The notes: a model not told the origin generated them from the letters alone. A stretch of 64,000 nucleotides of DNA from Candidatus Woesearchaeota archaeon (GCA_964591855.1 CAZQAZ010000002.1:36851-100850), one strand, 5' to 3'. Numbered from the stretch's first letter, positions 10 through 40,118 are shown. Made by a program: numbers and translations.

Positions 10-2979
10 TTGAGTAGTCTTGGAAGTTTGACATGCGAGACTATAGAGAGATTAGAAAGAGAATCAGGTGTTATAAAGAATGTGGGTGAGGGTTACTTTG
101 TTAGTGAGGAATATAATTCTATGTATAATTACATTCCAGAGTATTGGGGAGAGGTTGATGATAACTTCAAAGGGACACTTGACTTGATGAAAGAAATATT
201 TGAGAAGGGGGTAGATTGGGAAGTAAGTCCAAAGCTAACTGTACCTAGTTACTTGGATTCAAGGTACCTTGAATACGAGGTTACAGCATATTCATTTGAT
301 CAAAATTTCTGTACGAATGGAAGACTAAGTAGTGAATCTAAAGGGTTATATACTCTAAAAGGGCAGTGTAATAGCAAGGATCTCCAGACCGATGAAACTT
401 GTAAGGACCCTTCAGTATATCCAAGCGAAGATGACGAATCCAAATATGCTGGCAGAGCCTTTAGAGATGATCTAAGTAACGATGATAATTACTTCTGTTC
501 AGACTTTACGTGTCATGCATGTTATAGAGGTCCAGAGGACATGTGGTTTAGCGGTGAGGCTAAAGAGTCGGAAAAGTTAAGTTTCGGACCATTCTGTCCT
601 ACAGGTATAAGCGTAAGCAATTCTTATGTTTATGGGATAAATTTAACTCTTAAGCCAGGAGCGTATCCAAAGGAGTGGACACCTGGTTTTGTGGTTTATA
701 TAGAACCTGACTATGATTTAGGTGTGAGTAAGGATGATTTAGAAAATGTACAAGTTAATATCTCAAATGTAGATCCCATAGGCAGGGAAGTAGACCACCC
801 CCTTTGTGAGGAAGTCACAGTATACGGTAAAGATGGCAATATTCTTACTGCAGATGAAGAGGGATGGTATACTGGTGCTAAAAAGGTTGTATGTAAACTA
901 GACTGGACGAAGCATGATGATCCAAGTGATGCGTTATATTACCTCGTATACGGTGGACCGACTAGATTAATCCCTGATAGCATTAATCTAACCTCCTACT
1001 TCCGTATAAAAATGAAAGAAGGAGACAACAGCAAAGCACATGTCAACTTCTTTATAGATATGGGTGTTGTTGGTAGTGATAGTGCATCAAGTCAAGGTGT
1101 GACCCCAGTTCTTCACGAGTATGATTGTTATAATGGGATAGACGATGATGGAGATGGAGCTATAGATCAAGATGACGATGATTGTAAGGAGGTTTGTAAT
1201 AATGGTGAAGACGATGACCACACAGTAAGCTCTAAAAAATTTGTAGAGATAATAAAAGGTTTTTATGAGGATCAAAATGATGAGTGTTACCAAGATTATT
1301 CCTGTGCTTTACAAAAAGCTATACAAAACGATCTTTTAACAGATACAGACCCCACTACTGGTGTTGATAGGGATGATTGGAAGTGTCACGAATATTCATG
1401 TACAGACGGGTCTGACGAGTATGATCCTAATAAATTCCCTGAGTTTTTCAACGACAACGATGGCAATGCGGATGGGAAAGATCCCGACTGTTGGGTTTAT
1501 GCAGACTTTTCTTGCTTAAGAGATTATGATCCAAGCAATCCATATACAACAAGCAAATTAAAAGATGGTGCTGAGGTGTTAAAACTTGTAGCAATAGTCA
1601 AAGTAAAAGATGAAGATGGGAATTGGCACTTTGTTAGAAGTGTTGATCTGGGTACAAGCGTTGTGGAGAACTACATAAACTTTTGTCCAACAAGCGAGAA
1701 TGATGAGGGACTCGTCTCCTTCTCCGGAGCTAATAATGGTTTGGTATCTATAGACTATCTTGGGACTGAGAGAAATTTCAGACCAATGCAGAGCCAGATC
1801 TCTCCTGGACTAGAAAAACCAATTGAAACTCCAGAAATACAGCCCATAAGAGGTCCATTTAGAATAGTACCTATAGAACCTGCTGACAAAGACATTGTTA
1901 CAGGAGATAGTGTTGAACTGAAGGCAGATGTTTTCAATGGGGATTCAAACTATCTTTATAGGTTTTACGTTAAGGACGTAACAAACCCTTCGGAGGGGGT
2001 GGAGACATGTGATGGAAGTGTGAAGAAATTGGAGGACAAACTAGAAGCTAGCTGTACATTTGAGGGCTTGAAAGAAGGACATGTATATGAATGGTATGTA
2101 GGAGCATATGATAAAGATGTGCCTGTGGGAACATTCTCCGATAAAAGTTTATTTAGAGTATCACCTGGTCCTGGAAGTATTTGCTACGATTACAAGGGAA
2201 ATGAGATTCCTTGTTCGTCCTTCGCAACTAAAAAGTATATAGATAGAAATCTTGTTACCCTTCCTTTAAGCTTCAAGTATGGTGCGTCAGTACACAAAAC
2301 GTATGAGTCAGAGGAACCACCAACGCCTAAGAACCCATCTTGCGGTGATTATCCAGTGGTTCAGTACTTCCCTGAAGAAGATAGGGCGAGTGATTTCTTA
2401 TTCGCATATAAGATACCTATTGAATCGTGTACAGGAAGCGACCAATGTAAGAAATGTACAATACGTTGTGGAATAGAGAGTGGAGGTATACTAAGTGAGA
2501 GTAAAGAAAGTGAGATCCTATCAAATGGTGAGGTTTGTAGTTTAGTTTGCTACGAAGAGAATGGTGATGAGGAATGCACAATATGGTGTAATCCATCTGA
2601 ACCGGAAGTGTCATGTTCTTGTAGTAAGAATGTGGCTAATGATCTTTATTATGATTACTACAACAAAGATGGCGTCCAAAGCAACGTTCGATGTAAAGAT
2701 GAGGAAGGCAAAGTTGAGTGTGTTGTGGATTACTTGGACTCGGATACAGGCGAAACAAAGAGGGTTTGCGATGTGATACACGATAAAACATGCGATGAAG
2801 AAAGGTGTGTATCTTGGGATTCAAATGATAATTGTGTGCCCGAGAGCTTTATTGCGTTTGAGAATAGAACTCTTGTTAATATGAGCTTTAAGTTCAAGTT
2901 TGATATAGATTACAATGCTTTGATCTCGCTTTACTCTAATGAAGATAGAGTACCAATGTTAATAGGGAGGGCAATATGA
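10..2979 (+). CDS. Large acidic cysteine-rich secreted protein; 5' end lies outside the window; contains a MopE/thrombospondin-like Ca-binding motif (CYNGIDDDGDGAIDQDDDDC) and an Ig/Fn3-like segment
   Basis: Open frame runs from the window edge for 989 aa. Very high Cys and Asp/Glu content. The CxDxDxDGxxDxDDDC motif was read directly. Its stop overlaps the next start (ATGA). Confidence 0.55.
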   Translation: MSSLGSLTCETIERLERESGVIKNVGEGYFVSEEYNSMYNYIPEYWGEVDDNFKGTLDLMKEIFEKGVDWEVSPKLTVPSYLDSRYLEYEVTAYSFDQNFCTNGRLSSESKGLYTLKGQCNSKDLQTDETCKDPSVYPSEDDESKYAGRAFRDDLSNDDNYFCSDFTCHACYRGPEDMWFSGEAKESEKLSFGPFCPTGISVSNSYVYGINLTLKPGAYPKEWTPGFVVYIEPDYDLGVSKDDLENVQVNISNVDPIGREVDHPLCEEVTVYGKDGNILTADEEGWYTGAKKVVCKLDWTKHDDPSDALYYLVYGGPTRLIPDSINLTSYFRIKMKEGDNSKAHVNFFIDMGVVGSDSASSQGVTPVLHEYDCYNGIDDDGDGAIDQDDDDCKEVCNNGEDDDHTVSSKKFVEIIKGFYEDQNDECYQDYSCALQKAIQNDLLTDTDPTTGVDRDDWKCHEYSCTDGSDEYDPNKFPEFFNDNDGNADGKDPDCWVYADFSCLRDYDPSNPYTTSKLKDGAEVLKLVAIVKVKDEDGNWHFVRSVDLGTSVVENYINFCPTSENDEGLVSFSGANNGLVSIDYLGTERNFRPMQSQISPGLEKPIETPEIQPIRGPFRIVPIEPADKDIVTGDSVELKADVFNGDSNYLYRFYVKDVTNPSEGVETCDGSVKKLEDKLEASCTFEGLKEGHVYEWYVGAYDKDVPVGTFSDKSLFRVSPGPGSICYDYKGNEIPCSSFATKKYIDRNLVTLPLSFKYGASVHKTYESEEPPTPKNPSCGDYPVVQYFPEEDRASDFLFAYKIPIESCTGSDQCKKCTIRCGIESGGILSESKESEILSNGEVCSLVCYEENGDEECTIWCNPSEPEVSCSCSKNVANDLYYDYYNKDGVQSNVRCKDEEGKVECVVDYLDSDTGETKRVCDVIHDKTCDEERCVSWDSNDNCVPESFIAFENRTLVNMSFKFKFDIDYNALISLYSNEDRVPMLIGRAI

Positions 2980-5078
2980 GAAAATTTGTTTATATTGCTG
3001 CTGTTGTATTGATTCTGCTAGTTGTACATCTGTCACTAGGGCTGCAGTACGACCAGAATACTAAGTGTGGAGATAAGGCCTTATCTAACAAGTTTGTTTT
3101 CTCTATTGATAACGGCTGTAAGCCATACGGTCAGAGTGGTAAGTATGTATTTACTTTTAGGGATGGGTTAGCAGCTAGAGGGGCATGTTTTGCAGAGGAT
3201 GGAAGATGTACAGAAAGCAGGTGTGATTTCTCACAACCAGATGGTTCCTTTTGTGCAGTAGGTGTTGGCATAGATAAAGGTGCTACGGAGTATGGTGCTA
3301 TTTGTAGTAGTAAAGATTATGCAGCATGGGACAACTCTTCAGGAGCATGCGTCGAATGTTCAGGAATATATGAGCTTGGAAAGTATGCCGACCAAAAAGA
3401 TATATACTTATCTCCAGAGAGTCCGCGTATAGACTCAAGTATAATGACTTTGCCAAAAGACACTCTTGGTGAGACAAGAAAGACAGTAGAGTCAGGTTGT
3501 GCAATTAGGATGGGATCTCCACTTGATGTTTATTGGTGCGATGAGTACTATCCCTTCTCTGAGGGCGAAGAATTAAACGAAGATCAAATTGACTTTTACC
3601 TTGATAAAGGAATATTTAGGCCAGATTCCTACAGGAAGGTTATTAAAAGTGAAGGTGATGACTTTGAAAAGTATGAATACTCGGATCCTATTCCCTCTAC
3701 AGAACTTCCACCGATAGCAACAGAGTGTTATACAAAGAATAAGTTTGGACAAGGGAAGTGTGCAGCTTACTGTGGTTATGATGGACAGTTGCATGCTATG
3801 GAATGTGTTGACGATAATGAGTGCCCAGACGCATTCCTCATCACCAAAGATCCAGACTCATCGGACTACTTCCCAAGATATGAAATAAGAAGATCTGTGA
3901 GGCACTGTACAAGGAAACTCCCATTTGAATGTGCAGTCGATTCCGAAGAGGATTTGGATGACTCAAGACAGGCATGTGCAGCTTACGGACTTCAATACAT
4001 TAAAGCAGGAGAGGAAAATGTAGGAGAGTATGTAGACACAGATACACTTGGATGTTGTGGAGATGATGTTTATGCAAATGGGAGACCAAAGGAATTTATA
4101 AGGTACAGGGTGGTTGTTGGAGGAAGGACAGATTATAGTGATGTAGCTTGTTGTGGAGGAGAGGATAGATGTGTATACAATGGCAAGTGTTACAAAGAAG
4201 GATCAGCTGTTACCATAGATGGAAGGAAAGCACATTGTTATAACGGTGTTTGGGTGGCAAGAGGCTTAGACTTATATTATGGCTATCCTTCATATGTAGA
4301 ACTTCCAAAGTGTGGAGACTATATATGTGATGTCTCCACAGGTGAGAATTGTTTCACCTGCCCAATAGACTGTAGCTTTGATAGAGAATTCTCAAGTGTG
4401 GAAGTGTTTGACAAGGAAGTAATGCACAAAGGAGATAAGGATTATTATCCAGACGAAGTTGGAAATTACCATAACAATTCCTTTGATCTTACATGGTCCG
4501 ATAAGATAGTATGCGCTCCGTACTCCAACTTAAAATATAAAAGTCTTTATGGCTGGACTAGAGAAAAGACTAATTTCAATAATTCAAGAGTTGTTGTAAA
4601 GTGCGATAGTGACGAAGGTAAGGGTTGCGACGATGAGTTATCCTGCGAAGGACTATTCTGGTTCAAGCAATCCTCTAATGCTTTCTGCGTTAAGGCTTCG
4701 CCTGGGGATAAGCTTGAAGTTGAGTTGGAGGATGAAAATAGTGGTGATCACAGCAAGATCTTCACTGTAGAAGAAATAGATCCAACAGCAACAGACAGGA
4801 CGAAACCATTTGGATGCTTAAACAAAGGGATAGTATGTTTTTATGTTGATGTACTTGGATTTGACTCCCATAATGTGGAAGAAGACTACGTAGATAAAAT
4901 TAAGAGTGTTAAATACATTCAGTATCCTAAATCAGTTAGATCAACATGTGAATATGATTCGGAATGTGAATCTCATAACTGTGCTAAGTTTGGAGTGACA
5001 GGTGTGTGCTGTCCTTATGGTTACAAATTCAACGGAGAGGAGTGTTACCTTCCAGAGCAGTTTGATTACGACTCTTAG
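2976..5078 (+). CDS. Cysteine-rich secreted/membrane-anchored protein (700 aa) with N-terminal hydrophobic signal/anchor
   Basis: ATG overlaps the upstream stop. N-terminus MRKFVYIAAVVLILLVV is hydrophobic. Many paired Cys (CCGG, CxxC). Confidence 0.6.
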   Translation: MRKFVYIAAVVLILLVVHLSLGLQYDQNTKCGDKALSNKFVFSIDNGCKPYGQSGKYVFTFRDGLAARGACFAEDGRCTESRCDFSQPDGSFCAVGVGIDKGATEYGAICSSKDYAAWDNSSGACVECSGIYELGKYADQKDIYLSPESPRIDSSIMTLPKDTLGETRKTVESGCAIRMGSPLDVYWCDEYYPFSEGEELNEDQIDFYLDKGIFRPDSYRKVIKSEGDDFEKYEYSDPIPSTELPPIATECYTKNKFGQGKCAAYCGYDGQLHAMECVDDNECPDAFLITKDPDSSDYFPRYEIRRSVRHCTRKLPFECAVDSEEDLDDSRQACAAYGLQYIKAGEENVGEYVDTDTLGCCGDDVYANGRPKEFIRYRVVVGGRTDYSDVACCGGEDRCVYNGKCYKEGSAVTIDGRKAHCYNGVWVARGLDLYYGYPSYVELPKCGDYICDVSTGENCFTCPIDCSFDREFSSVEVFDKEVMHKGDKDYYPDEVGNYHNNSFDLTWSDKIVCAPYSNLKYKSLYGWTREKTNFNNSRVVVKCDSDEGKGCDDELSCEGLFWFKQSSNAFCVKASPGDKLEVELEDENSGDHSKIFTVEEIDPTATDRTKPFGCLNKGIVCFYVDVLGFDSHNVEEDYVDKIKSVKYIQYPKSVRSTCEYDSECESHNCAKFGVTGVCCPYGYKFNGEECYLPEQFDYDS

Positions 5079-5080
5079 GA

Positions 5081-6325
5081 GTGAATAAAATGGTATCAAG
5101 TAAAGCTGTAGTTTTTGTTGTCTCGACGATAATAGTAGTGATAACCTTGTTTTACTTTGCTTTACCTGTTACATCAATTCTTCATGCTTCGGCAGTCGAA
5201 CTGAACATGAAATCTTACTATGCTTTAACCGATGCTATAAAAGAAGCAAACACAAAAGGCATGGGAATAACAGATAAAATCTACCTTCAGAACAATTATT
5301 TCATAGTCTTTTTCAGGAATAATGAAGTTCTTGATAAACTTGTTAAAGGGGAGATATCGGGGTTTGAGGTCAAAGAGTATGTTTTTGATGGGAGTAGGTC
5401 AGGTTATATGTATTACAGGTCTGGTGTAGATAAGAAAGTGTATGAAGTGGACAGTAAGGCGTTTTATGGTGAAGACGAATTGAACAAGTGCGATATGGAT
5501 GAAAACTGCGTATGTTTGGTGAATTTAGATTACTATGATCCCAGCAACATTAACACGTGGATATACCAAATAGGTACTGAGCAGGGCGGGTTTGGTTGTT
5601 TAGATAGAGTATCCATCCAAGATACAACTATGAATAAATGGGAGACAAATACAGAACCGTACTTTTATGAGGTGAAGCTTTTCAAGCCACTAGGATGTTC
5701 TATCCCACAGAATAATATGAAGGCACCAATTCTGGAGTACAGAGATGGTGAAGGGAAAACACACAGGTTCTTTACGGATTTCTCTACGCTTGCCTTCATG
5801 GATCAATTTATATCCAAAGTTGGGAAGAACTTTACCTTGACTTTCGTTGAGTGTAAGCCTATGAAGGAATTATGTTCATGTGATATCTGTAGTCTATATG
5901 CAGATGAATACTCATGTACAGGAACAGGCTACGAGGAAGGTAGCCACTTTGGATGTGCATGGGATAGTGAGAAAGGAATGTGCTACAATGAGAAAAATTA
6001 TGAAAACTCAACCAACGACTGTTCGTTATGGATAATAAGTGATAAGGTGCGTCAGATATATTCTATCACCGAAAGGTCTAAGTTTGATTACATAATCTTT
6101 AAGAAAGAAGGCTGTGCTTTGCAGTGGTTTGATTCTTCGAAGAGGCCAATTGGCACAGACTCTATCTTTTATGAAGATTATGGAGGAGAGCTATTTGTAG
6201 AGGGGAAGGGCGAGGATAAGGATAAGATTGGAGCATGTGAGCCATGTTTCCAGACTATACCTGTGGAGCAATGTGGGGATCAACAACCTTGCTGTAAAGA
6301 GGAGGCAAAGTGTTCTCCCATATAG
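5081..6325 (+). CDS. Cysteine-rich surface protein (414 aa) with class III-like signal (SSKA/VVFVVSTIIVVITLF) and a C-terminal CCK...C module
   Basis: Third gene of the translationally coupled operon. N-terminal basic stretch followed by a hydrophobic helix. C-terminus is CEPCFQTIPVEQCGDQQPCCKEEAKC. Confidence 0.55.
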   Translation: MNKMVSSKAVVFVVSTIIVVITLFYFALPVTSILHASAVELNMKSYYALTDAIKEANTKGMGITDKIYLQNNYFIVFFRNNEVLDKLVKGEISGFEVKEYVFDGSRSGYMYYRSGVDKKVYEVDSKAFYGEDELNKCDMDENCVCLVNLDYYDPSNINTWIYQIGTEQGGFGCLDRVSIQDTTMNKWETNTEPYFYEVKLFKPLGCSIPQNNMKAPILEYRDGEGKTHRFFTDFSTLAFMDQFISKVGKNFTLTFVECKPMKELCSCDICSLYADEYSCTGTGYEEGSHFGCAWDSEKGMCYNEKNYENSTNDCSLWIISDKVRQIYSITERSKFDYIIFKKEGCALQWFDSSKRPIGTDSIFYEDYGGELFVEGKGEDKDKIGACEPCFQTIPVEQCGDQQPCCKEEAKCSPI

Positions 6326-21040: not shown

Positions 21041-21982
21041 TTAAGCAAATTCTCTATTTAAAAAGCTTTTGAAGTAGAGAAAGAAGCCAATAACCTTATC
21101 TTTGAGGTCCTCTTCATATCCAATGCCATTTATCTCTTGACTCTTGATGTAACCATTTGTAACTATAAATGGCCATGAGCCATACTTGTTTTCTTTGTAC
21201 GTTAAGATCTTCCTATAGGGATTATAAAGATAGGGACCTCTTTTTCTTAATTTGAGTTGACATTCTCTCTGCTCCACAGGATTAAAATTGTAATCAAAAG
21301 GTTCTGAGGGGTCTGTGCTGTACATGTATCTTGCTTTACTGTAACCAAGAAGGGTGTAATCTGGGCCAAGGTACCCGTACCTTCCAAAGGTTGGATCCAC
21401 TGGAAGCCAAGAGTTTGAGTAGTTGACTTCTATCCAAGAGTGAGGTTCTCCACTCTTCCATCCATACACAACCCGCGATTCAATCCCAATGGAGTTTAGC
21501 ATACTAACTGTAAGTTTTGATATGGACTCGCAGTTCCCACTCTTAGTCTCGAATGTTAACTCTGGGCTTTTCTCGTCCTGTGAGTAGTATATGCTTTCGT
21601 AAACCCATGTTGTGATGTTTAAAATAGCGTCCATTAGTGTTTTGGAACCAGAAGTAAGCTCAAAAGCCTTTTCGCAGTAGGCTTTTGAGCAGTTGCCTTG
21701 CACATGCTTGAATGGCACGTCTTTGAATTCGAAAGGCTTTGAGTATGGTTTACTCACGCCGTAGAAATAAAACTTCCCTGAGCAGTTTAAGTATTCTCCT
21801 TCAACCTCGCAGTTCGTAGAGTAGGATTCTAAGTATGGCATTTTAATCGCAAATGATGCATTTGTCTCACCACCGAGTGTTATGTTGTAAAGAGTGTAAC
21901 AAGGTGGGGAAGCCAAGGATATTGTAGGCATTGTACATATAAGACTAATAACAAGTACAAAGGCTATAAACTTCTTTAGCAT
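21041..21982 (-). CDS. Secreted transglutaminase-like cysteine protease-fold protein
   Basis: Sec signal peptide. Cys-His core ([28 protein letters not shown]...HSWIEV). Confidence 0.65.
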
Positions 21983-30056: not shown

Positions 30057-30302
30057 ATGGAGACAATTATATGTAACACAAAGCTTAAACAGCTTAGAGG
30101 TCTTATGTTTAGATTCAAAAAAGTTAGAGCTGTCTTCCCGGCAATACCTGTCCACACTTGGTTTGTCTTCTACCCAATAAAGTTAAAGTGGCTAGACAAA
30201 AACAAGAATTTAATCAAGGAAGAAATAGCAAAACCCTTCTCACTTAGGGTCTTCCACCCCCCAAAGAACGCATCCCATCTAATCGAGGAACCTCCTAATT
30301 AA
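30057..30302 (+). CDS. DUF192/COG1430-like small protein
   Basis: LRGLMFR and WFVFYPIKLKWLD motifs resemble DUF192. The match is weak. Confidence 0.4.
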   Translation: METIICNTKLKQLRGLMFRFKKVRAVFPAIPVHTWFVFYPIKLKWLDKNKNLIKEEIAKPFSLRVFHPPKNASHLIEEPPN

Positions 30303-30664
30303 CTGCAGGTAGATGCTGAGCAGTTTAGTCGACAAGATATTCCCGAAGGGTCCGTTAGTCTACATATTGTTAACTCTTTACATGTCATAGATTTACCACC
30401 GACAGTTACGGGCTCTGTACAGAAACTTATACCTACAGGTATACAATCACATTCCCCATCTTCATCATCATCTACTAATGATGTTATTAGCTCTTGGTCT
30501 TTGGCGCATACATTCTTACAGTGTGCTATTGCTTGAGCTGAAGATATACCTGCACCACCACCTTTTTGTGCGGATGTGAAGAATAGAAGTATAGCAGCAA
30601 GAGTAATAACTGCTAACGCCAAGACAATTATAAACTCAATTGGAATGGATACCCCTTTTTTCAA
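30299..30664 (-). CDS. Class III signal peptide (type IV pilin-like) cysteine-rich protein, paralog 1
   Basis: Pilin-like N-terminus KKG/VSIPIEFIIVLALAVITLAAILLFF followed by HCKNVCAKDQE...CKELTICRLTDPSGISC. The track ORF extends to 30742 (TTG) and overlaps the upstream gene, so start is placed at the in-frame TTG giving MKKGV. Confidence 0.6.
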   Translation of the reverse strand: MKKGVSIPIEFIIVLALAVITLAAILLFFTSAQKGGGAGISSAQAIAHCKNVCAKDQELITSLVDDDEDGECDCIPVGISFCTEPVTVGGKSMTCKELTICRLTDPSGISCRLNCSASTCS

Positions 30665-30705
30665 GTTACCACCTAAGTCTAAGAGACATTTGTTCTTTTT
30701 AAGCT

Positions 30706-31107
30706 TTAAGTTTGGCCAGACTGTCCACAAGAGGCCACACAAGTTCCTCCAAAGTTGTCTACTAGTTTACATGTTGTAATTTCATAGCATGGCGTCTTTT
30801 TGCCTTCAATGTAATAATGTCCATTACAGAACTTTGATGCAAGATTACCATACTCCTTACTACTATCTATACATCCTTCGTATCTAAGCTCCCCAGAATC
30901 TAATCTTTCGGTAAGATTTATCCCAGCAGGTAGAGCAGATCTGTCTTGCATACATAAGTTCAAACAAAAGGAAGTAGCCTTAATTGAAGAAGTTCCACTT
31001 TCTCCTTTAGCAGATTTTGAGATAAGCATAACGGCTGCTGCTAAGACCATTAGACCTATCCCAACTGCTACTAGAAAATTCATCATAGCACTTCCTTTCT
31101 TTGGCAT
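30706..31107 (-). CDS. Class III signal peptide (type IV pilin-like) cysteine-rich protein, paralog 2
   Basis: MPKKG/SAMMNFLVAVGIGLMVLAAAV followed by FCLNLCMQDRS...CYEITTCKLVDNFGGTC. Confidence 0.7.
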   Translation of the reverse strand: MPKKGSAMMNFLVAVGIGLMVLAAAVMLISKSAKGESGTSSIKATSFCLNLCMQDRSALPAGINLTERLDSGELRYEGCIDSSKEYGNLASKFCNGHYYIEGKKTPCYEITTCKLVDNFGGTCVASCGQSGQT

Positions 31108-31145
31108 AATTATCTAAAGAATGCTGAGTATATAAACTTTACAAT

Positions 31146-31706
31146 CTAACAGTTCACCCATGAGGCTAAGCAGCCCTCTTTTGGCAATTTACAGCATGCG
31201 CCAATGTTTAAGCATTTTTGTTTGTTAAGGATAGTGCTGTGGTAGTCTGGTCCTATGTAATTCAATTTACATAGTCTCTCCATTTTTCTTGTACCAACTT
31301 CACATGTATCACCTATACAACTAGGTATTCCACCATCTAATACACATGCAATTTCACATGCTTTTTTCATATCAACAGTTAGATTCGTAATCTCACAAGT
31401 CTCACCAAATGAATCCTTGATTACACAGCTTGTTAGGTCAAAGCATGTTACAGTTTCTCCACCTATTCTAAACTTAAGTTTCGCGAACTCTGATTCTTGA
31501 GACGTAACGCATACACCTTCTATGCTAACACTATCTAACCTCGAGTCGTTAAGACATGCAGCTTCACACATCTTTATAGCAGTGGTCCTTGAGACAGTTC
31601 CTATCCCAAGCAGTCCTACATTCCTAAGCATGATAAGAGCGACCAATATAACAGCTACTATTATAACAATTGTTATAAGCATGGTGAATTGTATTCCTCT
31701 TTTCAT
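31146..31706 (-). CDS. Class III signal peptide (type IV pilin-like) cysteine-rich protein, paralog 3 (two Cys modules)
   Basis: MKRG/IQFTMLITIVIIVAV. Module A is KMCEAACLNDS...TCFDLTSCVIKDSFGETC. Module B is KACEIACVLDGG...CCKLPKEGCLASWVNC. The track start 31715 (MVFM) lies 9 nt upstream. Confidence 0.7.
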   Translation of the reverse strand: MKRGIQFTMLITIVIIVAVILVALIMLRNVGLLGIGTVSRTTAIKMCEAACLNDSRLDSVSIEGVCVTSQESEFAKLKFRIGGETVTCFDLTSCVIKDSFGETCEITNLTVDMKKACEIACVLDGGIPSCIGDTCEVGTRKMERLCKLNYIGPDYHSTILNKQKCLNIGACCKLPKEGCLASWVNC

Positions 31707-32230
31707 GAACACCAACTCTTACTAAAGTATTTCCCATCTCTTATACACTTCTTCCCACCAACCGTCTCGCAGTCTGTTTTCAAAACAGTCCAAAGCTCAC
31801 ATAGCTTTGGGAACCTATCAGGTTCTTGGTCTGAGAGAAGACCATAACTTCCACCGTCTATCTCGCACGCCTTCTGACATGTTTTAATCTTGCTGAATGT
31901 AATGGGAGATACAGCACAGATGCCATACTCTGTTGACATCCTACACTCTGTTAAGTTGTAACAATTAACTTTTCCCATACCTTCCACATTTAGGTATGTG
32001 TGAATAAAAGAATAGTCATCACTATATGCACATGAGCCTTCTAGGTTAACGGCTCCATGTATAGAGTCCTCTGAACATAGATCATCGCATTTTGATATCG
32101 CACTAAGTTGTGTTATTGTTGCTGCACTTGGCTTCGTAAGGGATCCAGATAAATAAAGACCAACGAGAAGAACCATAACCCCCACGGCGACTGCTAGCAA
32201 AAAGCTAAATCCTGCTTGCAAAGCTTTCAT
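31703..32230 (-). CDS. Class III signal peptide (type IV pilin-like) cysteine-rich protein, paralog 4
   Basis: MKALQAG/FSFLLAVAVGVMVLLV followed by KCDDLCSEDS...NCYNLTECRMSTEYGIC...CQKACEIDGG. Confidence 0.7.
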   Translation of the reverse strand: MKALQAGFSFLLAVAVGVMVLLVGLYLSGSLTKPSAATITQLSAISKCDDLCSEDSIHGAVNLEGSCAYSDDYSFIHTYLNVEGMGKVNCYNLTECRMSTEYGICAVSPITFSKIKTCQKACEIDGGSYGLLSDQEPDRFPKLCELWTVLKTDCETVGGKKCIRDGKYFSKSWCS

Positions 32231-32257: not shown

Positions 32258-33913
32258 TTAGTTTTTCCTTACAACAACTGCTACTCCACTATCAAAGTCC
32301 ATTATCTCCTTTGGACTAAGTAAAGCATCTCCATTACCAATGTACTCTCCTTTCTCGTCTACTATTGCAACTTGATCCCCAGCTAGGAAGCTGCCTACGT
32401 CCTTAACAAACTTACAAAATACACTCTTCCCTTTCTTAACAAAGGGTACAGCCTCCTCATCTATTTTAACGTAGTAATCTTTGGCCAACTTGAATATGTC
32501 CCTCATACCTTCGTCCCCGAATACTATCCTTCCATCACCAGGTCTTATGGTTGCGTACACTCCCCCTTTCTTTAAGATTCTCCTTATCCTTCCAGTCTTT
32601 CTGCTCTTTTCAATCACGGCTCCTTTCAAGACTTTCTTACCTATGCCTTTCCCAAATTGAAAGTCCACAAGCTTTTCGATTCTTTTCATGTCGCTGAATT
32701 CTTTCTTGGAGAATTTGAATACATTTTCTCCTCCAAGCATGTTGAATGGAAACACTTCTTTGAAAGAAGGATTCACTTTAGAACCTACTCTCTCTTTGTA
32801 AAGTCTCAAGGCAACCTTAACATCAGGTCTTAGCTTTGTTTCCATTCCCAAGAAATGAGGTGCCTTTTTCTTCTTTAAACTTACAAACTCCTCCATGAAC
32901 TTACCATACTTTTTAAGTAAATGAATGTATGCAGAGTAAATGTCTGCATGGAGCCTTGCCCTATTTACTAGAAACTCAAAGAATCTCCCACCTTTTATAG
33001 CAACCCTTATCTTCCTTATCTCATCCAATGTAACATTCAGATTGTGTCTTGCAATTAATTCTTCTGTCATCTCAGATGGTGATCTTCCTTTACAGACATC
33101 GCATGTACATGGCAATTCATGCATTTCCTTAAGCTCATTAATGTCTATAATCTTTTCAATAGTCATGTATGCGCCCCTGCTTGCATACAAAGCATATGCA
33201 GCTGAATCAAATATGTCAACACCCATTGCTACAAGAAGAGCGAATATCTGTGGATTGCCTGCACCAAAAGCATGAATTGGTATGTTCTGTGGCAAGCTCA
33301 TTTTGCAAGTCATTATTATGTCTACAAGGTCTTTGAAGTTGTAGTTTTCCATAAGGGGAACTATCCCACCTATTGCTGCTATGTCCCCATATACCTTAGA
33401 ACAAGCTTTCTTTCTTAGGTCTAAGAACTTGCCTCCTTGAATAGGCTGACACAGTAACCTATCTTCTTTCATTTCCTTAGCAGCTTCTATCCTTTTAAAG
33501 GTCTCTTCCAACTTTCTTTTGGCTGTAGTGTAATCATCGTCAGGGAATGTGAATACGTCTAAAGGAGTTATTATATCAGATCTTATCTTCTTTTGAAATT
33601 CAAGGGTTTCTTCATTTGTTATGCGTGCATCTCCAATAGAATACATTTGGAATGTTCCAGAATCCGTATATATTGGCTTATTCCACCTGAAGAACTTATG
33701 TAGTCCTTTCTTTTCTATCTCTTTTCTTGATTTGGAGCTCTTGATGATGTAAGAGTTAGTGATTATCAAGTCAAAGTCCTTCAAGTCTTTGATTGGGACT
33801 GTCATCTTGTTGGGGTTTACAACTACGGCAATAGTAGGTGTAGTTATCTTTTTGCCTCTTATGTTCAGCTCTCCAACTCTTGCTAATCCATCCTTAGCTT
33901 TAATCTGAAACAT
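32258..33913 (-). CDS. tgtA: Archaeosine tRNA-guanine transglycosylase (ArcTGT) with C-terminal PUA domain
   Basis: Catalytic YTDSGTFQ and PLDVF motifs. Zinc site CTCDVCKG. C-terminal PUA domain (AIVDEKGEYIGNG). Confidence 0.85.
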   Translation of the reverse strand: MFQIKAKDGLARVGELNIRGKKITTPTIAVVVNPNKMTVPIKDLKDFDLIITNSYIIKSSKSRKEIEKKGLHKFFRWNKPIYTDSGTFQMYSIGDARITNEETLEFQKKIRSDIITPLDVFTFPDDDYTTAKRKLEETFKRIEAAKEMKEDRLLCQPIQGGKFLDLRKKACSKVYGDIAAIGGIVPLMENYNFKDLVDIIMTCKMSLPQNIPIHAFGAGNPQIFALLVAMGVDIFDSAAYALYASRGAYMTIEKIIDINELKEMHELPCTCDVCKGRSPSEMTEELIARHNLNVTLDEIRKIRVAIKGGRFFEFLVNRARLHADIYSAYIHLLKKYGKFMEEFVSLKKKKAPHFLGMETKLRPDVKVALRLYKERVGSKVNPSFKEVFPFNMLGGENVFKFSKKEFSDMKRIEKLVDFQFGKGIGKKVLKGAVIEKSRKTGRIRRILKKGGVYATIRPGDGRIVFGDEGMRDIFKLAKDYYVKIDEEAVPFVKKGKSVFCKFVKDVGSFLAGDQVAIVDEKGEYIGNGDALLSPKEIMDFDSGVAVVVRKN

Positions 33914-33934
33914 AAAAATAAAGATTATACATAG

Positions 33935-33944
33935 TTTTATAAAT
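33935..33944. promoter_or_regulatory. Near-palindromic TATA box (TTTTATAAAT) shared by divergent tgtA and the radical-SAM gene
   Basis: Centred at about 33939.5, which is the midpoint between the two divergent start codons (33913 and 33965), 22-31 nt from each. Confidence 0.5.
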
Positions 33945-33964
33945 GCTTCTAGTGTAGTGCTTTT

Positions 33965-35251
33965 ATGGCAACGATAATACTCTCTTCAGGTAAGTGTAGA
34001 TGGGGAAAGTGTGTATTCTGTGGATGGGGTAAGTTAGTTGCAGATAGGGATGAGAATAGAGTTAAGCGTGACTTCCTTAGGAAGCTTTCTAACATTAAAG
34101 GCGAAGATACACTCTCCATATTTGCTTCTGGATCTTTTTTGGACGATTTACAATTCTCCCCAGAACTGAGAAAGTGGATTGTAGAGAAATTAAAGGAGAA
34201 AGGCTTTAAGAACCTAACTATAGAATCTAGGCCTGAGTTCATAACCAAAGAGAAACTTGAAGAGTTTAAGGGATTAAACCTCACAGTTGCTATTGGGTTA
34301 GAAGTTGCAGATGATGAGGTTCTTAAGAAGTTAAAGAAAGGGATAACCCTAAAAGACTTTGAGAGAGCAGCAAAAATAATACACGATTCTGGAGCCAAGC
34401 TTAGGGTTTACTTGCTTGTAAATCCCCCATTTGTGGATGATCCAAAAGAGTCTTTTAGGAAATCTGTTGAGTACGCTAAAAAGTTTGCGGATTCAATAGT
34501 CGCTATAAATTGCTATCCTCACTCTAAGTCAGAGTTGTTTGACATGTGGGTAAGGGGTGAGTGGAGACCTTTAGACGAGGAGGAGTTTAAAGAAGTGACG
34601 AAGGGTTATGATGTGGAGCTAGACTTCAGCAATTATAATTTCATCCCGAAGTTTCCTAAAGATAAACAAGAGAGGATAGTAGGTGTCTCTAAGGATACTT
34701 TACTTCACCCATATTATGAAGTTTGGCAGGATTATTTTCAGAGATTTTACAAGGTTCCAAAGGGTAAGAGATTTGCCCTTTTCTTACCATGTTCTTACAT
34801 TAAGCCTTACAGAAGATCCCCCACACACAGAGCTATCCTGAGAAAGCTACTAAAGCTTCCAACATACAAACAAATACATCAGATTATGATCTCATCACCT
34901 GGAGTTATACCAAGGGAGTTTGAGAACTACTATCCATTTAACTCATATGAGTGGAACGAGAAAGACGAGACAGAAGAGATAAAGAAACTTTACATAGACG
35001 TTAATAAAGAAAGGATTAAGAAGTATTTGCGAAGGCACAAATATGAGAAAGTATTCTCATATTTGAAGCCAGACTCAGAATCTTATAAGGCTCTTAAAGA
35101 AGCATGTGATGAGCTTGGGATAAACCTAATAAATCTTGTGGACGAGGAGAAGTACTTAGAACTTAAAGATAGAATCAAGGCAAGAATTTTAACACATGAA
35201 AGTTTGTTGGAATCGATGTGTAATAAGCTCTTGGAAGAAACGAAGAGTTAA
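33965..35251 (+). CDS. Elp3-like radical SAM protein (CX4CX2C), candidate archaeosine-pathway RaSEA-like enzyme
   Basis: N-terminal SSGKCRWGKCVFCGWGK parallels the Elp3 CPHGKCVMC motif. Divergently adjacent to tgtA. Pathway assignment is inference. Confidence 0.5.
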   Translation: MATIILSSGKCRWGKCVFCGWGKLVADRDENRVKRDFLRKLSNIKGEDTLSIFASGSFLDDLQFSPELRKWIVEKLKEKGFKNLTIESRPEFITKEKLEEFKGLNLTVAIGLEVADDEVLKKLKKGITLKDFERAAKIIHDSGAKLRVYLLVNPPFVDDPKESFRKSVEYAKKFADSIVAINCYPHSKSELFDMWVRGEWRPLDEEEFKEVTKGYDVELDFSNYNFIPKFPKDKQERIVGVSKDTLLHPYYEVWQDYFQRFYKVPKGKRFALFLPCSYIKPYRRSPTHRAILRKLLKLPTYKQIHQIMISSPGVIPREFENYYPFNSYEWNEKDETEEIKKLYIDVNKERIKKYLRRHKYEKVFSYLKPDSESYKALKEACDELGINLINLVDEEKYLELKDRIKARILTHESLLESMCNKLLEETKS

Positions 35252-35259
35252 AATGAAAG

Positions 35260-38200
35260 TTAACACTGTAGCCATGAAGCTATGCAGTTGTATTCTGGGA
35301 GCTTACAGCAGTAGCCGCTTGCCTTACACTTCTCTAGGTTGTCTTGATTTGTTTGGAAGGTTGGCCCTATCTTGTTAAGCTCACAAACTGTAGGGGTTGG
35401 ACTTTCACCCTCTTCGAAGTTCCACACGTCACTTCCACAGCTATTCAAGCTCCCACAAGTGACAGGCTCTCCACCATCTTTCAAACAAGCCTCCACACAA
35501 GCTTTTCCAAAATCCGTTGAATCCCTGCTTATGTAACAATCACCCAAACTGCAGGTTAGCACTTGATCACAATATACAGTTGTTCCTTCGACATTGAAAC
35601 TTAAGCTTGCAAAGTCTGAACTATTAAAGTAACACACCCCATTGATGTTAACAAACTCTTTGTTTGTGTCATTCATACAAGCTTCCTCACACATCCTCTG
35701 AATCTCAGGATGTGTGGATATTATCTTCTCCACATTTGTATGTTTGATTAATGTGTTACAATCGTACACGTTATTGGATCCAAGATCGTTAGGGAGTATA
35801 TCACCTTTTGTATCCAGTAGACACACATTTCCTTCCATCTTGTTATTGTTGAAAGTCACAGGAGTATCAAACACAAACCCATATACATTGTTCACGAAGT
35901 TGTTACTGTCAAACACACCACTGCATTCGCTACATAGCACACCATAGTAATTAGAGTAGAATGTATTACCTACCACGTTTACATTTCCACCTATAGCACT
36001 TATGCCAGAGTCTGAGTTCGAGAATGAAGATGATTTGATATTTCCAACACCAGAGACTCTGACATAATTTAACCCAGTTATATCGGAGTCTTCGATTGTT
36101 ATATTACCATAAGATTCAATCTTAAAGTCCTTATCTGCATAATGGATTTTAACCCCCTTCAGCGTGAGGTTTCCATAGTTCACCAAACTACATGGAGATG
36201 TACAGTTGATGTACAAGTTAACATTCTCTAAAGTAAGATTTCCATGCACAGTTGTATTCTTAAGGAGCACAACACCTAAGTTCTTAACATTACAGTTGTC
36301 GGATTTCTCAACTATCCAATCTTTGTACGTTGAAGGATAGCACCTATTCTCTTCGAGAACAGCAATAATCTTTTTTGGAGAATCAAATCTAACTTTAAGT
36401 GTGGTGTAGTTATAATGTCTCCAGTAATTTAAGACCTGAGCACCTGTTACGTTGACTGTGTAATCTCCCACATCAATTAAGTTAAAGTCCTTGTCGAGAT
36501 AATACGCCTGTCCACACCATGTTTTAACTGGCGAAGAAATGTATCCTGCATCACATTCTAAAATCCTTGTGGTTGGATAGGGTCTTATCTTATTTCCATT
36601 TGTGTCTTTAATTTCTATCTCTATTATGCTTGTTGATGCAATTAAACCTTTAGTATTGCTATCAGGCAAGAGTGTGTTTTTCGAACTCAAGCTATTAAAG
36701 AAAGCTTCGATATCACTCCCAGATATGTCTGAGTTGACGAGCATTATTAAGAATGAACCTCCTTTTAAAGTGTTCCCTTCTATGTCAACATTGTTTTCCG
36801 AAGTAAGTCTTATAGGATTGTTATAGTACTTGTAGTCCTTTACGGTTACAGAGTTGTGTTTAATGGAACCTGAGGAGTTGGATACAGAGATCCATCCAAC
36901 ATTCATATCATTTGATGTTAAGTTTATTGTAGAGTTTGTTATTGCTAAACCAATTGATTGATCTACATCATTGTTGCTAAACTCCACCGTTGAGTTGTAA
37001 GAGTAGAGAGGATAGACTACACCAACTATGTTGCTCTCATTAATCTTAGCTTTTGAGTTAAGCACATAAAATCCATAGTATGTTTTGTAACTTCTACCGC
37101 CAGAGAATGTGAAGTTGGTGTTTGATATGTTCACACCCTTTTCATCGGATATGTAAACACCGCCATACATTCTCTTATATGGACCCGACATGAATCTATT
37201 CTTATAGAATGTGACATTCTTGTTATTTATGAGGTAGACCTCAAATATGTAACTTGATGTATTTGTGTGGAAGGTGTTATTTGTTATGTTGATGTATGAG
37301 TTTGTTGAATAGATCCCCCTCGCTCCGAAAAATGTGGAGTTGGAGACAGTTATGTTAGAGCCTCTTGCGAAGAGTCCATAATAACTCTTGTCCACCACAT
37401 TTTTAAGTGTCAAGTTAGACTCAACCGAAACAACACTTACTCCCTTGTTGTTGAAGAAAGCGTCCTTAATTTCCCCACTTGAGTTGAAGTAGTAAAGAAG
37501 CTTATTGACCTTACCAAAATCTCCAAATGATCCATAAAAGTCTTGCTTGGTGTTGAGATTGTATAGAAGTATCTTAACATTGTCTGCTTTGTTACCCCTT
37601 CCATATACTTTGTTGGTGTTGTGGATTCCTAACTTATAGTCGTATGAGAACGAGTTACCGAAGAATAATGCTTCTCCGTAATTGTAGACGAAGGAATATG
37701 CATGATCCCATGTGTTACTAATAAACCTTGTCCCTACAGCATAGTTTTTAACAGGGATGTATGCGTTTGTGAATACATTCTTTAATAGAACAGTGGGCTC
37801 CACTATGTTTAAAGCCCTCCTTCCAAAGAAAGTGTTTCCAACGAGTTTAATCTTCTCGCCCACATCAAAGTCTTTGTCTAGTTCTATGTTATTCCCTTTT
37901 AGAACGATATGATTACTAAGTGACAGTTGGCTGGTTTTGATACTGTTTCCTCTTATCACAGCCTTACTTGTTCTCACATCTAACTCTGAGTTGTGAAGTA
38001 TTGATTTTTGGATGTTCAATGAGGATCCTTCTAAAGCAGTTATGTATGCCTTACTAACAAACGAGCTGGCTATTAGTATTTGACCACCCTGGTTAGCTTG
38101 TATGGTCTTTGAGTTTCCATTAAGGTAAGAGTTTATTAAAACAAGCGCTCCACCGTCCTTCACCACAATAGGATACTTTAAGTCTATGTCTTTACCATAA

Positions 38201-39273
38201 CAAACCTCCACGTCTTTAATCTCCCAAGTTCTATCTTCTGGTATTCTACAATTGGATATGTCGTACACTCTATATTCGTTGTTTGTGTAGTTTGCATCGC
38301 CTTGTGTGGAGTTTACCACAAGTCTCAATGGAAGAATAGAACCCATATTGAAAGCATCGTATTTTGTGTTGAGCATTATAGTGCCTGCAGTCCCAACTGG
38401 GAGTGTTCCTTTTGTATACTCCAGAAGCTTTTGGTTTCTTTTGTTGAACAAGGTTAAGTTATAGTCCTCAGCGTCTACGAGTCCAAGATTATAAACTGAA
38501 GTCTGAAGAGTTCCTTCTAGAGGAGTGTAGTATAACACGTATGGCTTAATTTCTGCTTGGGAACCCATATCAAATTTAATTGATATGGTATTCGAATTAA
38601 AGAGATGTGAGAAGTCATAAGGTTCAGAATCATTTGAGGCACCATTCTCTATAATAGCTTCGTATGTTCCATCGGCTCCAAAGTCTACTCTTATTTTCCC
38701 AGAGTAGCTTGTTGTCAAGTTTGCGAAGTAGATGACAGCTCCTTGTGGTAAAGTAATATGTACTACGTCCCCTGGATTAATAGTGTTTCCCTCATTAAAA
38801 GTGTTGGTTACGTTGATCTCATTAAGAGTGAAGTTAAACTCAGCACCAAGTATTGTTTGGTCTGGAAGATAAACGAGTGAACAGTCTTGTGGACACGTTT
38901 CTTCTGTTTCATTCCCATTACATATTCCATCTCCACAGTATGCCCCAACACATGTTCTCTTGGATACGACACAAGTACGTCCAGAACTATCGGTCAATGT
39001 ACATTTAACGTAGTTATAACAGTCCTTCGAACAGAAGTTTGGAGCCAGACCTTGGCTACAGAACCCCCTATCAGATGTAACGGTTCTGACGATATTATTG
39101 TCCTCTTCACATAACTCCCTACATTCTTTCTCAAGGCTAACTATACTTTGAACTTGCTCCGTTCCACCTTTAGATCTGATAACCAAGAAGTATACTGCTG
39201 CAAGAACGGCAACTGCTATTATTACAACAGCTAGAATCTCTACGCTGCTAGCCCTCTTGTAAGCTTTGTACAT
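35260..39273 (-). CDS. Giant (1337 aa) class III signal peptide surface protein/adhesin candidate: pilin-like N-terminus, Cys module A, long N-x-S/T-rich beta-helix-like repeat region, C-terminal Cys modules A and B
   Basis: N-terminus MYKAYKRA/SSVEILAVVIIAVAVLAAV. Then EKECRELCEEDNN...CSQGLAPNFCS. Central region is rich in N, S, T and Y with dozens of NxS/T sequons (NITNNTFHTNTSSY...). C-terminus MCEEACMNDTN...YCDQVLTCSLGDC and KACVEACLKDGG...CCKLPEYNCIASWLQC. Confidence 0.75.
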   Translation of the reverse strand: MYKAYKRASSVEILAVVIIAVAVLAAVYFLVIRSKGGTEQVQSIVSLEKECRELCEEDNNIVRTVTSDRGFCSQGLAPNFCSKDCYNYVKCTLTDSSGRTCVVSKRTCVGAYCGDGICNGNETEETCPQDCSLVYLPDQTILGAEFNFTLNEINVTNTFNEGNTINPGDVVHITLPQGAVIYFANLTTSYSGKIRVDFGADGTYEAIIENGASNDSEPYDFSHLFNSNTISIKFDMGSQAEIKPYVLYYTPLEGTLQTSVYNLGLVDAEDYNLTLFNKRNQKLLEYTKGTLPVGTAGTIMLNTKYDAFNMGSILPLRLVVNSTQGDANYTNNEYRVYDISNCRIPEDRTWEIKDVEVCYGKDIDLKYPIVVKDGGALVLINSYLNGNSKTIQANQGGQILIASSFVSKAYITALEGSSLNIQKSILHNSELDVRTSKAVIRGNSIKTSQLSLSNHIVLKGNNIELDKDFDVGEKIKLVGNTFFGRRALNIVEPTVLLKNVFTNAYIPVKNYAVGTRFISNTWDHAYSFVYNYGEALFFGNSFSYDYKLGIHNTNKVYGRGNKADNVKILLYNLNTKQDFYGSFGDFGKVNKLLYYFNSSGEIKDAFFNNKGVSVVSVESNLTLKNVVDKSYYGLFARGSNITVSNSTFFGARGIYSTNSYINITNNTFHTNTSSYIFEVYLINNKNVTFYKNRFMSGPYKRMYGGVYISDEKGVNISNTNFTFSGGRSYKTYYGFYVLNSKAKINESNIVGVVYPLYSYNSTVEFSNNDVDQSIGLAITNSTINLTSNDMNVGWISVSNSSGSIKHNSVTVKDYKYYNNPIRLTSENNVDIEGNTLKGGSFLIMLVNSDISGSDIEAFFNSLSSKNTLLPDSNTKGLIASTSIIEIEIKDTNGNKIRPYPTTRILECDAGYISSPVKTWCGQAYYLDKDFNLIDVGDYTVNVTGAQVLNYWRHYNYTTLKVRFDSPKKIIAVLEENRCYPSTYKDWIVEKSDNCNVKNLGVVLLKNTTVHGNLTLENVNLYINCTSPCSLVNYGNLTLKGVKIHYADKDFKIESYGNITIEDSDITGLNYVRVSGVGNIKSSSFSNSDSGISAIGGNVNVVGNTFYSNYYGVLCSECSGVFDSNNFVNNVYGFVFDTPVTFNNNKMEGNVCLLDTKGDILPNDLGSNNVYDCNTLIKHTNVEKIISTHPEIQRMCEEACMNDTNKEFVNINGVCYFNSSDFASLSFNVEGTTVYCDQVLTCSLGDCYISRDSTDFGKACVEACLKDGGEPVTCGSLNSCGSDVWNFEEGESPTPTVCELNKIGPTFQTNQDNLEKCKASGYCCKLPEYNCIASWLQC

Positions 39274-39315
39274 GAAAAATTAAAGAAGTAATACTTAATA
39301 AAACTAATTAAGCAA

Positions 39316-39666
39316 CTAGCAGCTATTAGAGGTCACAACACAAGTTCTCCCATCTTCAAATGTTAGAACACATTTAGTTATGTCGTAACATCTCAAGGTT
39401 CTGCCTGCTATCTTAAATGAACCGCTACAGAAGTTTGGAGCTAGACCCTGTCCACAAGACCCATCTTCATATATCTCTCCACTAATAAGAAGCTGGTTGT
39501 CCTTAGCACAGGCAGCTTCACATGAGGACTTAGCATCGGATAGGGTTATAGACTCCCCAGATTGTGCTTTCCCTTTGAAAACTAGGTAAAGTCCAGCTAC
39601 CGCCACCATAGCACTTAATATGATAACGACTATCAAGTTTATCGAACTTTGTCCTCTCATCCACAT
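39316..39666 (-). CDS. Class III signal peptide (type IV pilin-like) cysteine-rich protein, paralog 6
   Basis: MWMRG/QSSINLIVVIILSAMVAVAG followed by SSCEAACAKDNQ...CGQGLAPNFCSG...CYDITKCVLTFEDGRTCVV. Closely matches the N-module of the giant protein. Confidence 0.7.
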   Translation of the reverse strand: MWMRGQSSINLIVVIILSAMVAVAGLYLVFKGKAQSGESITLSDAKSSCEAACAKDNQLLISGEIYEDGSCGQGLAPNFCSGSFKIAGRTLRCYDITKCVLTFEDGRTCVVTSNSC

Positions 39667-40076
39667 CTCACTCCTATAGCTTCTAATCTATCAACGACAC
39701 CAAGCTGTTCGGCATAATTACATATCTCTTCTTCATCGTAGCTTGAGAGCTCACCAAAGTAACATATCCCCCAAGGTGTTTCAGCTGAACATTGGACTAT
39801 GTCATAACAGTGTTTGGTCTTGCCACTTAACTTGAACTCAAGCTTTCCAAAATCTGACTTTGGATTTGTATAGCATTGTCCATCTATGCTTGTTATGTTT
39901 TTGTATTGGTCAAGCAGACAAAAATCGCTGCATTTTGATTTTAAAGATGCTCTTGAGAGGGAGCCGAGATTGGAGATGTAACCTTTATTGAATATGAAGA
40001 TGACTATTAGTATAACTGAGAGAGCAAGTAAAGCTGCTATGACATAGTTTATTCCCAGTGAAACACCTTTTTTCAT
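39657..40076 (-). CDS. Class III signal peptide (type IV pilin-like) cysteine-rich protein, paralog 7
   Basis: MKKG/VSLGINYVIAALLALSVILIV followed by KCSDFCLLDQ...HCYDIVQCSAETPWGIC. Confidence 0.7.
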   Translation of the reverse strand: MKKGVSLGINYVIAALLALSVILIVIFIFNKGYISNLGSLSRASLKSKCSDFCLLDQYKNITSIDGQCYTNPKSDFGKLEFKLSGKTKHCYDIVQCSAETPWGICYFGELSSYDEEEICNYAEQLGVVDRLEAIGVRCG

Positions 40077-40118
40077 AAATAATAAATGATTTATTTGTTA
40101 ATAAAGTTTTATTTTAGT

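Follow-up and report, generated by a model that had tools for sequence, protein, structure and literature searches.

A candidate modular, pilin-like surface protein of 1337 residues encoded by a DPANN-type archaeon

Modular type IV pilins have been described in bacteria, among them PilB and PilC of S. sanguinis, CofB of enterotoxigenic Escherichia coli (ETEC) and Thermus ComZ, which has a beta-solenoid module, and these proteins have been proposed to act as tip-exposed adhesins (PMC8179133). In archaea, class III signals also occur on non-pilin domains, such as the sugar-binding proteins of the Sulfolobus bindosome and the galactose-binding or adhesin-like proteins encoded in type IV filament (TFF) loci, Epd of Methanococcus among them (PMC4371748, bioRxiv 10.64898/2026.04.22.720090), and large adhesin-like or beta-helical proteins are encoded in archaeal TFF loci alongside proteins that combine a class III signal with additional domains (bioRxiv 10.64898/2026.04.22.720090). 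Ultrasmall episymbionts have been observed connected to their hosts by pili-like appendages (PMC7906910). Here we analysed a 1337-aa protein, referred to as the giant, which is encoded by an open reading frame (ORF) running uninterrupted from ATG to stop on the minus strand (35260..39273) of a 64,000-nt stretch of DNA, the window, from Candidatus Woesearchaeota archaeon (GCA_964591855.1 CAZQAZ010000002.1:36851-100850). On balance we favour the reading that the giant is a type IV pilin-like surface protein of modular build, specific to the lineage of the DPANN-type archaeon that encodes it, and a role as an attachment protein is plausible on computational evidence that is in part weak.

Like the bacterial modular pilins, the giant displays a predicted N-terminal class III signal and a small, putatively pilin-type carrier with bulky modules behind, and its predicted beta-solenoid recalls the one in ComZ. 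Unlike them, it is archaeal, has no IPR012902-type motif and no hidden Markov model (HMM) match, contains two predicted beta-helix modules, ends in a second copy of a paralog head and has a carrier whose pilin fold is putative; at 1337 aa it is also much larger than the most extreme multi-domain example that PMC8179133 cites, which has 860 aa. With the archaeal class III non-pilin proteins it has in common a predicted prepilin-type signal on a large extracellular protein, the hydrophobic N-terminus being presumed to serve as an anchor or in co-assembly, but it possesses no substrate-binding or lectin domain, has no TFF ATPase or platform gene adjacent in the window and belongs to a one-species family. 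Right-handed beta-helix surface proteins (Pfam Beta_helix PF13229 and NosD PF05048), represented by the archaeal protein P0010 and the bacterial adhesins EtpA, PfbA, pertactin and UpaB, use Sec signals, autotransporter domains or C-terminal anchors, whereas the giant has a pilin-like N-terminus and no direct Pfam match. Surface proteins of DPANN and candidate phyla radiation (CPR) episymbionts, such as the 1115-aa NosD-like protein of L007 and the 1561-aa Cys-rich protein of L008, resemble the giant in being large, sequon- or Cys-rich, fast-evolving and encoded in reduced genomes, but they carry ordinary signal peptides and C-terminal membrane anchors and show no detectable sequence similarity to it. 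The fusion of a class III signal to non-pilin modules is already known; undescribed in these sources are an archaeal (DPANN) example of 1337 aa, one with two beta-helix modules and a pilin-head copy at its far end, and a seven-member family without detectable relatives outside its species.

The giant was divided into the following features, listed from the N-terminus to the C-terminus:

39250..39273, minus strand: predicted class III leader MYKAYKRA, residues 1-8, putatively cut by a prepilin peptidase behind A8, with R at -2 and A at -1
39175..39249, minus strand: H-domain, an N-terminal hydrophobic helix, residues 9-33, from Kyte-Doolittle and AlphaFold, with E12 at +4/+5
38950..39144, minus strand: module A, residues 44-108, in which a CxxxC helix precedes a Cys-bonded beta part, putative pilin head, from paralog alignments
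38881..38949, minus strand: mini Cys module CGDGICNGNETEETCPQDC, residues 109-131, from sequence
38254..38880, minus strand: beta-rich region with 7 sequons, residues 132-340, fold unassigned, no family match, AlphaFold confidence (predicted local distance difference test, pLDDT) below 50
36724..38253, minus strand: putative right-handed beta-helix module 1, residues 341-850, with a cap motif (C342-x-IP-x4-W-x-I-x5-C358) at its start
36349..36723, minus strand: inter-helix region, residues 851-975, in which C907 and C920 form a pair and residues 930-947 a strain-variable patch, fold unassigned
35758..36348, minus strand: right-handed beta-helix module 2, residues 976-1172, with a cap motif (C978-x-P-x5-W-x-V-x5-C994) at its start, homologous to P0010
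35524..35757, minus strand: helical linker (1173-1193) and module A' (1194-1250), the second paralog-head copy, from BLASTP and alignment
35263..35523, minus strand: module B' (1251-1337), a Cys-rich C-terminal module ending in ...CCKLPEYNCIASWLQC, from comparison with the 189- and 175-aa paralogs

The N-terminus of the giant reads MYKAYK-R(-2)-A(-1)|SSVEIL, and the string KRA/SSVEILAVVIIAVAV, which the original prediction had taken as a pilin-like signature, lies at residues 6-23; every string quoted in that prediction was located in the giant protein. Archaeal class III signals, the substrates of PibD, FlaK or EppA, have G, A or S at -1, a charged residue at -2 and the cleavage site before the H-domain, and sites characterised by experiment include RA|QI, KG|QV, RA|LS and RA|VS (PMC4371748). 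Judged by inspection, the giant's predicted signal agrees with these rules. Kyte-Doolittle windows exceeded 1.6 solely at residues 5-37, the single membrane-length hydrophobic segment of the protein, and AlphaFold placed a helix over residues 10-36 with pLDDT of about 80.

BLASTP of the giant against all ORFs of the window revealed six small Cys-rich paralogs in two nearby clusters, which were delimited by BLASTP and alignment:

39316..40076, minus strand: upstream paralogs of 139 aa (39657-40076) and 116 aa (39316-39666, with an RG|QSS signal)
30299..32230, minus strand: second cluster, with paralogs of 175 aa (31703-32230), 189 aa (31146-31715), 133 aa (30706-31107) and 147 aa (30299-30742)

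The 139- and 116-aa genes overlap by 10 nt, and the pair sits 42 nt upstream of the giant gene. Leaders of the paralogs are short and basic, end in RG|Q, KG|V, KG|S, RG|I, KA|L or AG|F and are followed by at least 20 hydrophobic residues, and a polar N, E, T or S residue occupies one aligned column near +4 to +6 in the family. The 175-aa paralog has KA or QAG, and the 147-aa paralog fits the [KR][GA] signature only with an internal start. As listed, the TTG start of the latter gene (30299-30742, minus strand) lies 37 nt inside the previous gene and puts about 28 additional residues before KKG|VSIPIE; its true start is probably internal.

Paralogy of the giant to small pilin-like genes, as proposed in the original prediction, was borne out by module A, which is common to all six paralogs, to giant residues 44-108 and to the giant's own C-terminus (1194-1250). 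These eight copies follow the pattern C-x3-C-x2-D ... G ... F ... C-x5-C ... C, with C51, C55, D58, G70, F80, C85, C91, C101 and C108 invariant, and the quoted string EKECRELCEEDNN...CSQGLAPNFCS corresponds to giant residues 48-82. Module A of the giant is 34% identical to the neighbouring 116-aa paralog, and the Cys content of the family amounts to 3-8% (about 1% in cytoplasmic neighbours). AlphaFold modelling of residues 1-135 with an 11-sequence paralog alignment was confident for the helix 10-36 only, with pLDDT below 50 for the head. A module-A family profile searched against 5.8 billion clusters retrieved only proteins of the same organism. The term pilin-like is thus used here on the predicted signal signature, on how small and how clustered the paralogs are and on the helix-plus-strands layout, and not on homology or fold; the roughly 1200 aa of extra modules lie behind residues 1-108, whose pilin identity is argued from the signal signature and paralogy only. 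A looser variant of the mini Cys module, CGDYICDVSTGENCFTCPIDC, was seen in a secreted 700-aa ORF at 2976-5078.

The C-terminus repeats modules A and B, in agreement with the original prediction. Residues 1193-1337 (A'B') aligned with residues 49-190 of the 189-aa paralog at 39% identity over 151 positions (BLASTP, E 3e-29), the matched part being the whole extracellular portion of that paralog, modules A and B. Module B is common to the 189- and 175-aa paralogs, and in phmmer searches module B' matched P0009, a variant of the 189-aa paralog, with an E-value of 3e-18. The strings MCEEACMNDTN...CSLGDC and KACVEACLKDGG...IASWLQC were found at residues 1194-1246 and 1258-1337, respectively.

When residues 138-1337, which include the core, were searched exhaustively with phmmer against 1.84 billion representatives, three proteins only were retrieved: the query, P0010 and the 189-aa paralog's variant. 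NCBI names P0010, a euryarchaeal protein of 572 aa, "right-handed parallel beta-helix repeat-containing", and it matches Pfam Beta_helix (5e-16) and NosD (1e-15). Its similarity to module 2 was significant library-wide (phmmer E 1.4e-4); giant residues 978-1119 aligned with P0010 residues 21-170 at 29% identity over 150 aa (BLASTP E 9e-13, Smith-Waterman z 17.6), an alignment that covers the Pfam-matched part of P0010 only partially (P0010 residues 117-170). On this sequence homology we read module 2 as a beta-helix. The mature N-terminus of P0010 reads C-E-P-P-S-A-G-T-W-A-I-N-P-G-E-T-C, and the corresponding cap motif occurs twice in the giant, at 342-358 and 978-994 (at least one occurrence in 6 of 20000 shuffles), marking the starts of two modules.

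For module 1, several lines converge, each of them weak, and it is probably a beta-helix as well. Pieces of it compared with module 2 or P0010 gave Smith-Waterman z values of 2.4-4.2, and hhalign of a module-2/P0010 profile against residues 336-900 aligned the cap motif alone (E 0.012, probability 3.6%). BLOSUM autocorrelation peaked at a lag of 21 in both residues 340-880 (z 3.8) and 975-1190 (z 3.3); coils of the pectin-lyase-like beta-solenoid span about 22 residues. The short strand-like repeats of the original prediction, exemplified by the NSTFFGARG...YKNRF stretch at residues 645-693, survive as this 21-residue periodicity, but they are very degenerate and self-BLAST of the giant found no internal repeats. 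In the AlphaFold model of the core, pLDDT reached 50-73 only at residues 592-811 and 992-1086, both of them series of short strands at regular spacing. No coils were picked up in the giant with an HMM made from seven coils of P0010, a model too small to inform. No substrate-binding family of Pfam or NCBIfam matched the giant; the periplasmic substrate-binding-protein fold was not found, and the core is beta-solenoid-like. The core is best described as a pair of beta-helix modules, the first of them putative, together with beta-rich domains of unassigned fold that total about 330 aa, and not as the single continuous stalk of 1000 aa that had been suggested.

The giant is rich in N (10.8%), S (9.1%), T (7.3%) and Y (6.1%), and its mature chain would have a mass of about 147 kDa and a pI of 5.2. 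Its 40 Cys residues cluster at 51-131 and 1195-1337, the core holding sparse pairs only. It contains 32 N-x-S/T sequons, or 2.39 per 100 aa, about six times the density in the other 62 ORFs of the window (0.41). Shuffling of the giant's own residues gave 23 +/- 4.2 sequons, and a selective excess beyond composition was marginal only, with 32 or more in 43 of 2000 shuffles. Next to the giant, the window's densest protein in sequons, at 1.92 per 100 aa, is a secreted transglutaminase-like protein of 313 aa (21041-21982, minus strand; Cys 2.6%), which is likely to be another envelope glycoprotein.

The gene is intact and conserved between strains. A 90%-identity cluster of the giant comprised five sequences from NCBI, JGI, ENA and Logan assemblies, each of 1337 aa, and in three other assemblies the gene order was the same: the 139-aa gene, the 114/116-aa gene, the giant and a convergent radical-SAM/DUF5591 gene. 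Comparison with the most divergent strain, P0003 (GCA_053993735.1; 98% identical, 26 aa differences), revealed 43 synonymous and 31 non-synonymous differences, all 40 Cys residues being kept. The ratio of non-synonymous to synonymous substitution rates (dN/dS, Nei-Gojobori) was 0.19, which indicates that the gene is under purifying selection; housekeeping neighbours had values of 0.03-0.14. Six of the 26 differences fall into one patch at residues 930-947 (window 36433-36486, minus strand), and dN/dS rose to 0.54 for residues 881-975 in this comparison of two strains. This patch may be a specificity determinant. Asn to Asp changes account for five of the 26 differences (residues 121, 160, 328, 658 and 1078), and those at N121 and N328 abolish sequons.

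For the pilin-like reading, which we prefer, we infer cleavage, filament incorporation, glycosylation, adhesion and a target as follows. The precursor would be inserted via the Sec pathway, and an archaeal prepilin peptidase would remove the 8-residue leader after R-A. The freed hydrophobic helix and the small Cys-bonded module A would then form a carrier that either keeps the giant in the membrane or slots it into a filament of the six small paralogs; because of its bulk, it would most likely be a low-abundance or tip subunit there. From this carrier about 1200 residues would be held out, comprising the beta-rich region, the two beta-helix modules, the variable patch and A'B'. The two right-handed beta-helix modules would form a rigid, probably N-glycosylated stalk, and the disulfide-rich A'B' pair, copied from the head of the 189-aa paralog, would contact a partner surface.

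Several results weigh against this reading. Ser at +1 lies outside the commonest +1 residues, and Pfam and NCBIfam pilin or class III models gave no match to the giant, to its first 50 or 135 residues or to the six paralogs at E-values up to 10; the class III signal claimed in the original prediction stands on published criteria applied by inspection, and pilin-family membership by HMM is negative. The ORFs scanned across the 64-kb window and the genes called in the 10 kb to its right included neither a pilus ATPase, a platform protein nor a prepilin peptidase, which was the synteny check proposed in the original prediction; stand-alone pilin loci are known in archaea (PMC4371748). The AlphaFold model of residues 132-1195, computed without an alignment, had a mean pLDDT of 42.8 (24-29 for the other four models), and the sequence-level support for module 1 consists of weak z-scores only. 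Foldseek of this model, one of the checks named in the original prediction for the central region, found no significant match in the PDB (best E 0.012), a PDB sequence search with the giant gave zero matches at E-values up to 10, and the whole protein and its segments yielded nothing meaningful against Pfam and NCBIfam (E up to 10) or PHROGs (E up to 1). The predicted beta-helix core is supported for module 2 through its homology to P0010; no profile in Pfam, NCBIfam or the PDB recognises the core directly. The sequon density is real yet mostly compositional, because own-residue shuffles already give most of it; what was called a sequon-dense core thus holds in number, with an excess that largely follows from an N/S/T-rich composition.

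Some of these results would also suit an uncleaved N-terminal signal-anchor (type II) envelope glycoprotein, S-layer-like or a stand-alone adhesin, which would be unrelated to type IV filaments and whose paralogs would be small anchored Cys-rich surface proteins. One N-terminal membrane-length segment with no other anchor, the lack of a pilin HMM or pilin fold match and the absence of filament machinery from the window and the 10 kb to its right are all compatible with it, and in other DPANN archaea (L007, L008) large surface proteins, either sequon-rich with a beta-helix or Cys-rich, have ordinary signals and are anchored at the C-terminus. A plain anchor, however, needs no basic residue plus G/A abutting the hydrophobic stretch, a pattern seen in six of the seven family members, one of which has RG|Q, an EppA-type site; the polar N/E/T/S residue at one aligned column near +4 to +6 also speaks against it, and paralogs that are as small as these (114-189 aa) and that lie in clusters are typically found in pilin sets. 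We regard the signal-anchor explanation as possible though rather unlikely. A third explanation is an artefact, with read-through joining two pilin genes, one of them small, and a beta-helix gene between them into an ORF that is mis-assembled, fused or decaying as a pseudogene, and indeed the giant's termini resemble separate neighbouring genes and its full architecture has no homologs anywhere. Such an artefact is effectively refuted by the same length, architecture and synteny in the NCBI, ENA, JGI and Logan assemblies, the absence of internal stops, the 40 of 40 conserved Cys residues and the excess of synonymous over non-synonymous differences (dN/dS 0.19), and the gene is not a pseudogene, a condition that the original prediction had named as refuting it.

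The predicted beta-helix modules might be catalytic, which would make the giant a tailspike-like polysaccharide lyase or hydrolase, displayed on the surface or on a pilus and cutting glycans of the host envelope, with adhesion as a secondary function. This explanation, which can coexist with the pilin-like model, appears improbable: no lyase, hydrolase or tailspike match was found in Pfam, NCBIfam, PHROGs or PDB sequences, the sole sequence relative, P0010, belongs to the generic Beta_helix/NosD families, and the core model is too poor for inspection of a catalytic groove. Equally speculative, and in our view doubtful, is a tip subunit of a DPANN pilus that works in the manner of a phage tailspike on a retractable or extendable filament, with the pilin-like N-terminus seated at the tip, the beta-helix modules binding and perhaps cutting host glycans, A'B', a copy of a filament subunit's head, binding the host or docking on other filaments and residues 930-947 setting host specificity; the whole would have arisen by fusion of a pilin with stand-alone beta-helix proteins and with the head of a second pilin. 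If true, an archaeal episymbiont would possess a new device for recognising its host that is private to the species.

DPANN archaea rely on contact with host cells, and very few of the molecules making this contact are known. The locus offers a concrete and testable candidate for DPANN attachment: a seven-member, species-restricted family of prepilin-like Cys-rich proteins, one of which has grown to a 147-kDa, predicted beta-helix protein with a strain-variable patch. Should the pilin-like giant be processed and mounted on a filament, the "modular pilin" principle would extend from bacteria to archaea in a size and complexity not described so far, and would provide a handle for studying attachment in an uncultured lineage. 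Should it be merely a membrane-anchored envelope protein, it would be an ordinary fast-evolving surface orphan.

The window has a GC content of about 38% and encodes archaeal housekeeping functions, including FtsZ, Spt5, ribosomal proteins L11, L1 and L10, exosome components, a proteasome subunit, aIF5B and aIF2-gamma, as well as Kae1, NrdD, RNase J and archaeosine tRNA-guanine transglycosylase. The best relatives of the adjacent radical-SAM/DUF5591 protein are at most 52% identical and occur in metagenome-assembled genomes (MAGs) of Micrarchaeota, Nanoarchaeota, Parvarchaeota and Aenigmatarchaeota; since relatives at only 52% lie in DPANN MAGs, we assign the bearer of the giant gene to a DPANN-type archaeon without a close species representative. 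No syntenic ortholog of the giant was present in the DPANN relatives found via this gene. The big neighbours in L007 (1115 aa) and L008 (1561 aa) are surface proteins unrelated to the giant, and the location of large surface proteins near these genes is probably a coincidence. Word-indexed searches with the full giant and with the module-2/P0010 profile returned only strain variants, same-organism module-A paralogs or P0010, and a contig-level scan with the giant found no relative; among billions of proteins, P0010 was the only homolog outside the species, and the full architecture occurred nowhere.

A TATA-like sequence, TTTATTAA, lies about 22-30 nt 5' of the ATG of both the giant and the 139-aa gene (39274-39315 and 40077-40118, minus strand), in AT-rich DNA, and a Shine-Dalgarno motif is absent before both. 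Together, the TATA-like box and the absence of a Shine-Dalgarno motif suggest leaderless transcripts and a separate promoter for the giant gene. As listed, the 139-aa gene and a methyltransferase ORF have divergent starts 9 nt apart (window 40077-40085), and in other assemblies the methyltransferase is called 11 codons shorter (195 aa), which leaves a divergent promoter region of 42 nt. On the other side, the archaeosine tRNA-guanine transglycosylase and radical-SAM/DUF5591 genes (32258-35251) separate the giant from the second paralog cluster, in the same order as in other strains.

At the left end of the window, three consecutive Cys-rich ORFs (10-6325, plus strand; 4-6% Cys) have no Pfam match. 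The first encodes 989 aa and is probably truncated by the window edge. The second (700 aa) has an ordinary signal peptide and a CGDYIC...CPIDC stretch that resembles CGDGIC...CPQDC of the giant, and the third (411 aa) carries an N-terminal hydrophobic anchor after S-S-K-A. From their sequences, these ORFs look like a second locus of orphan secreted proteins.

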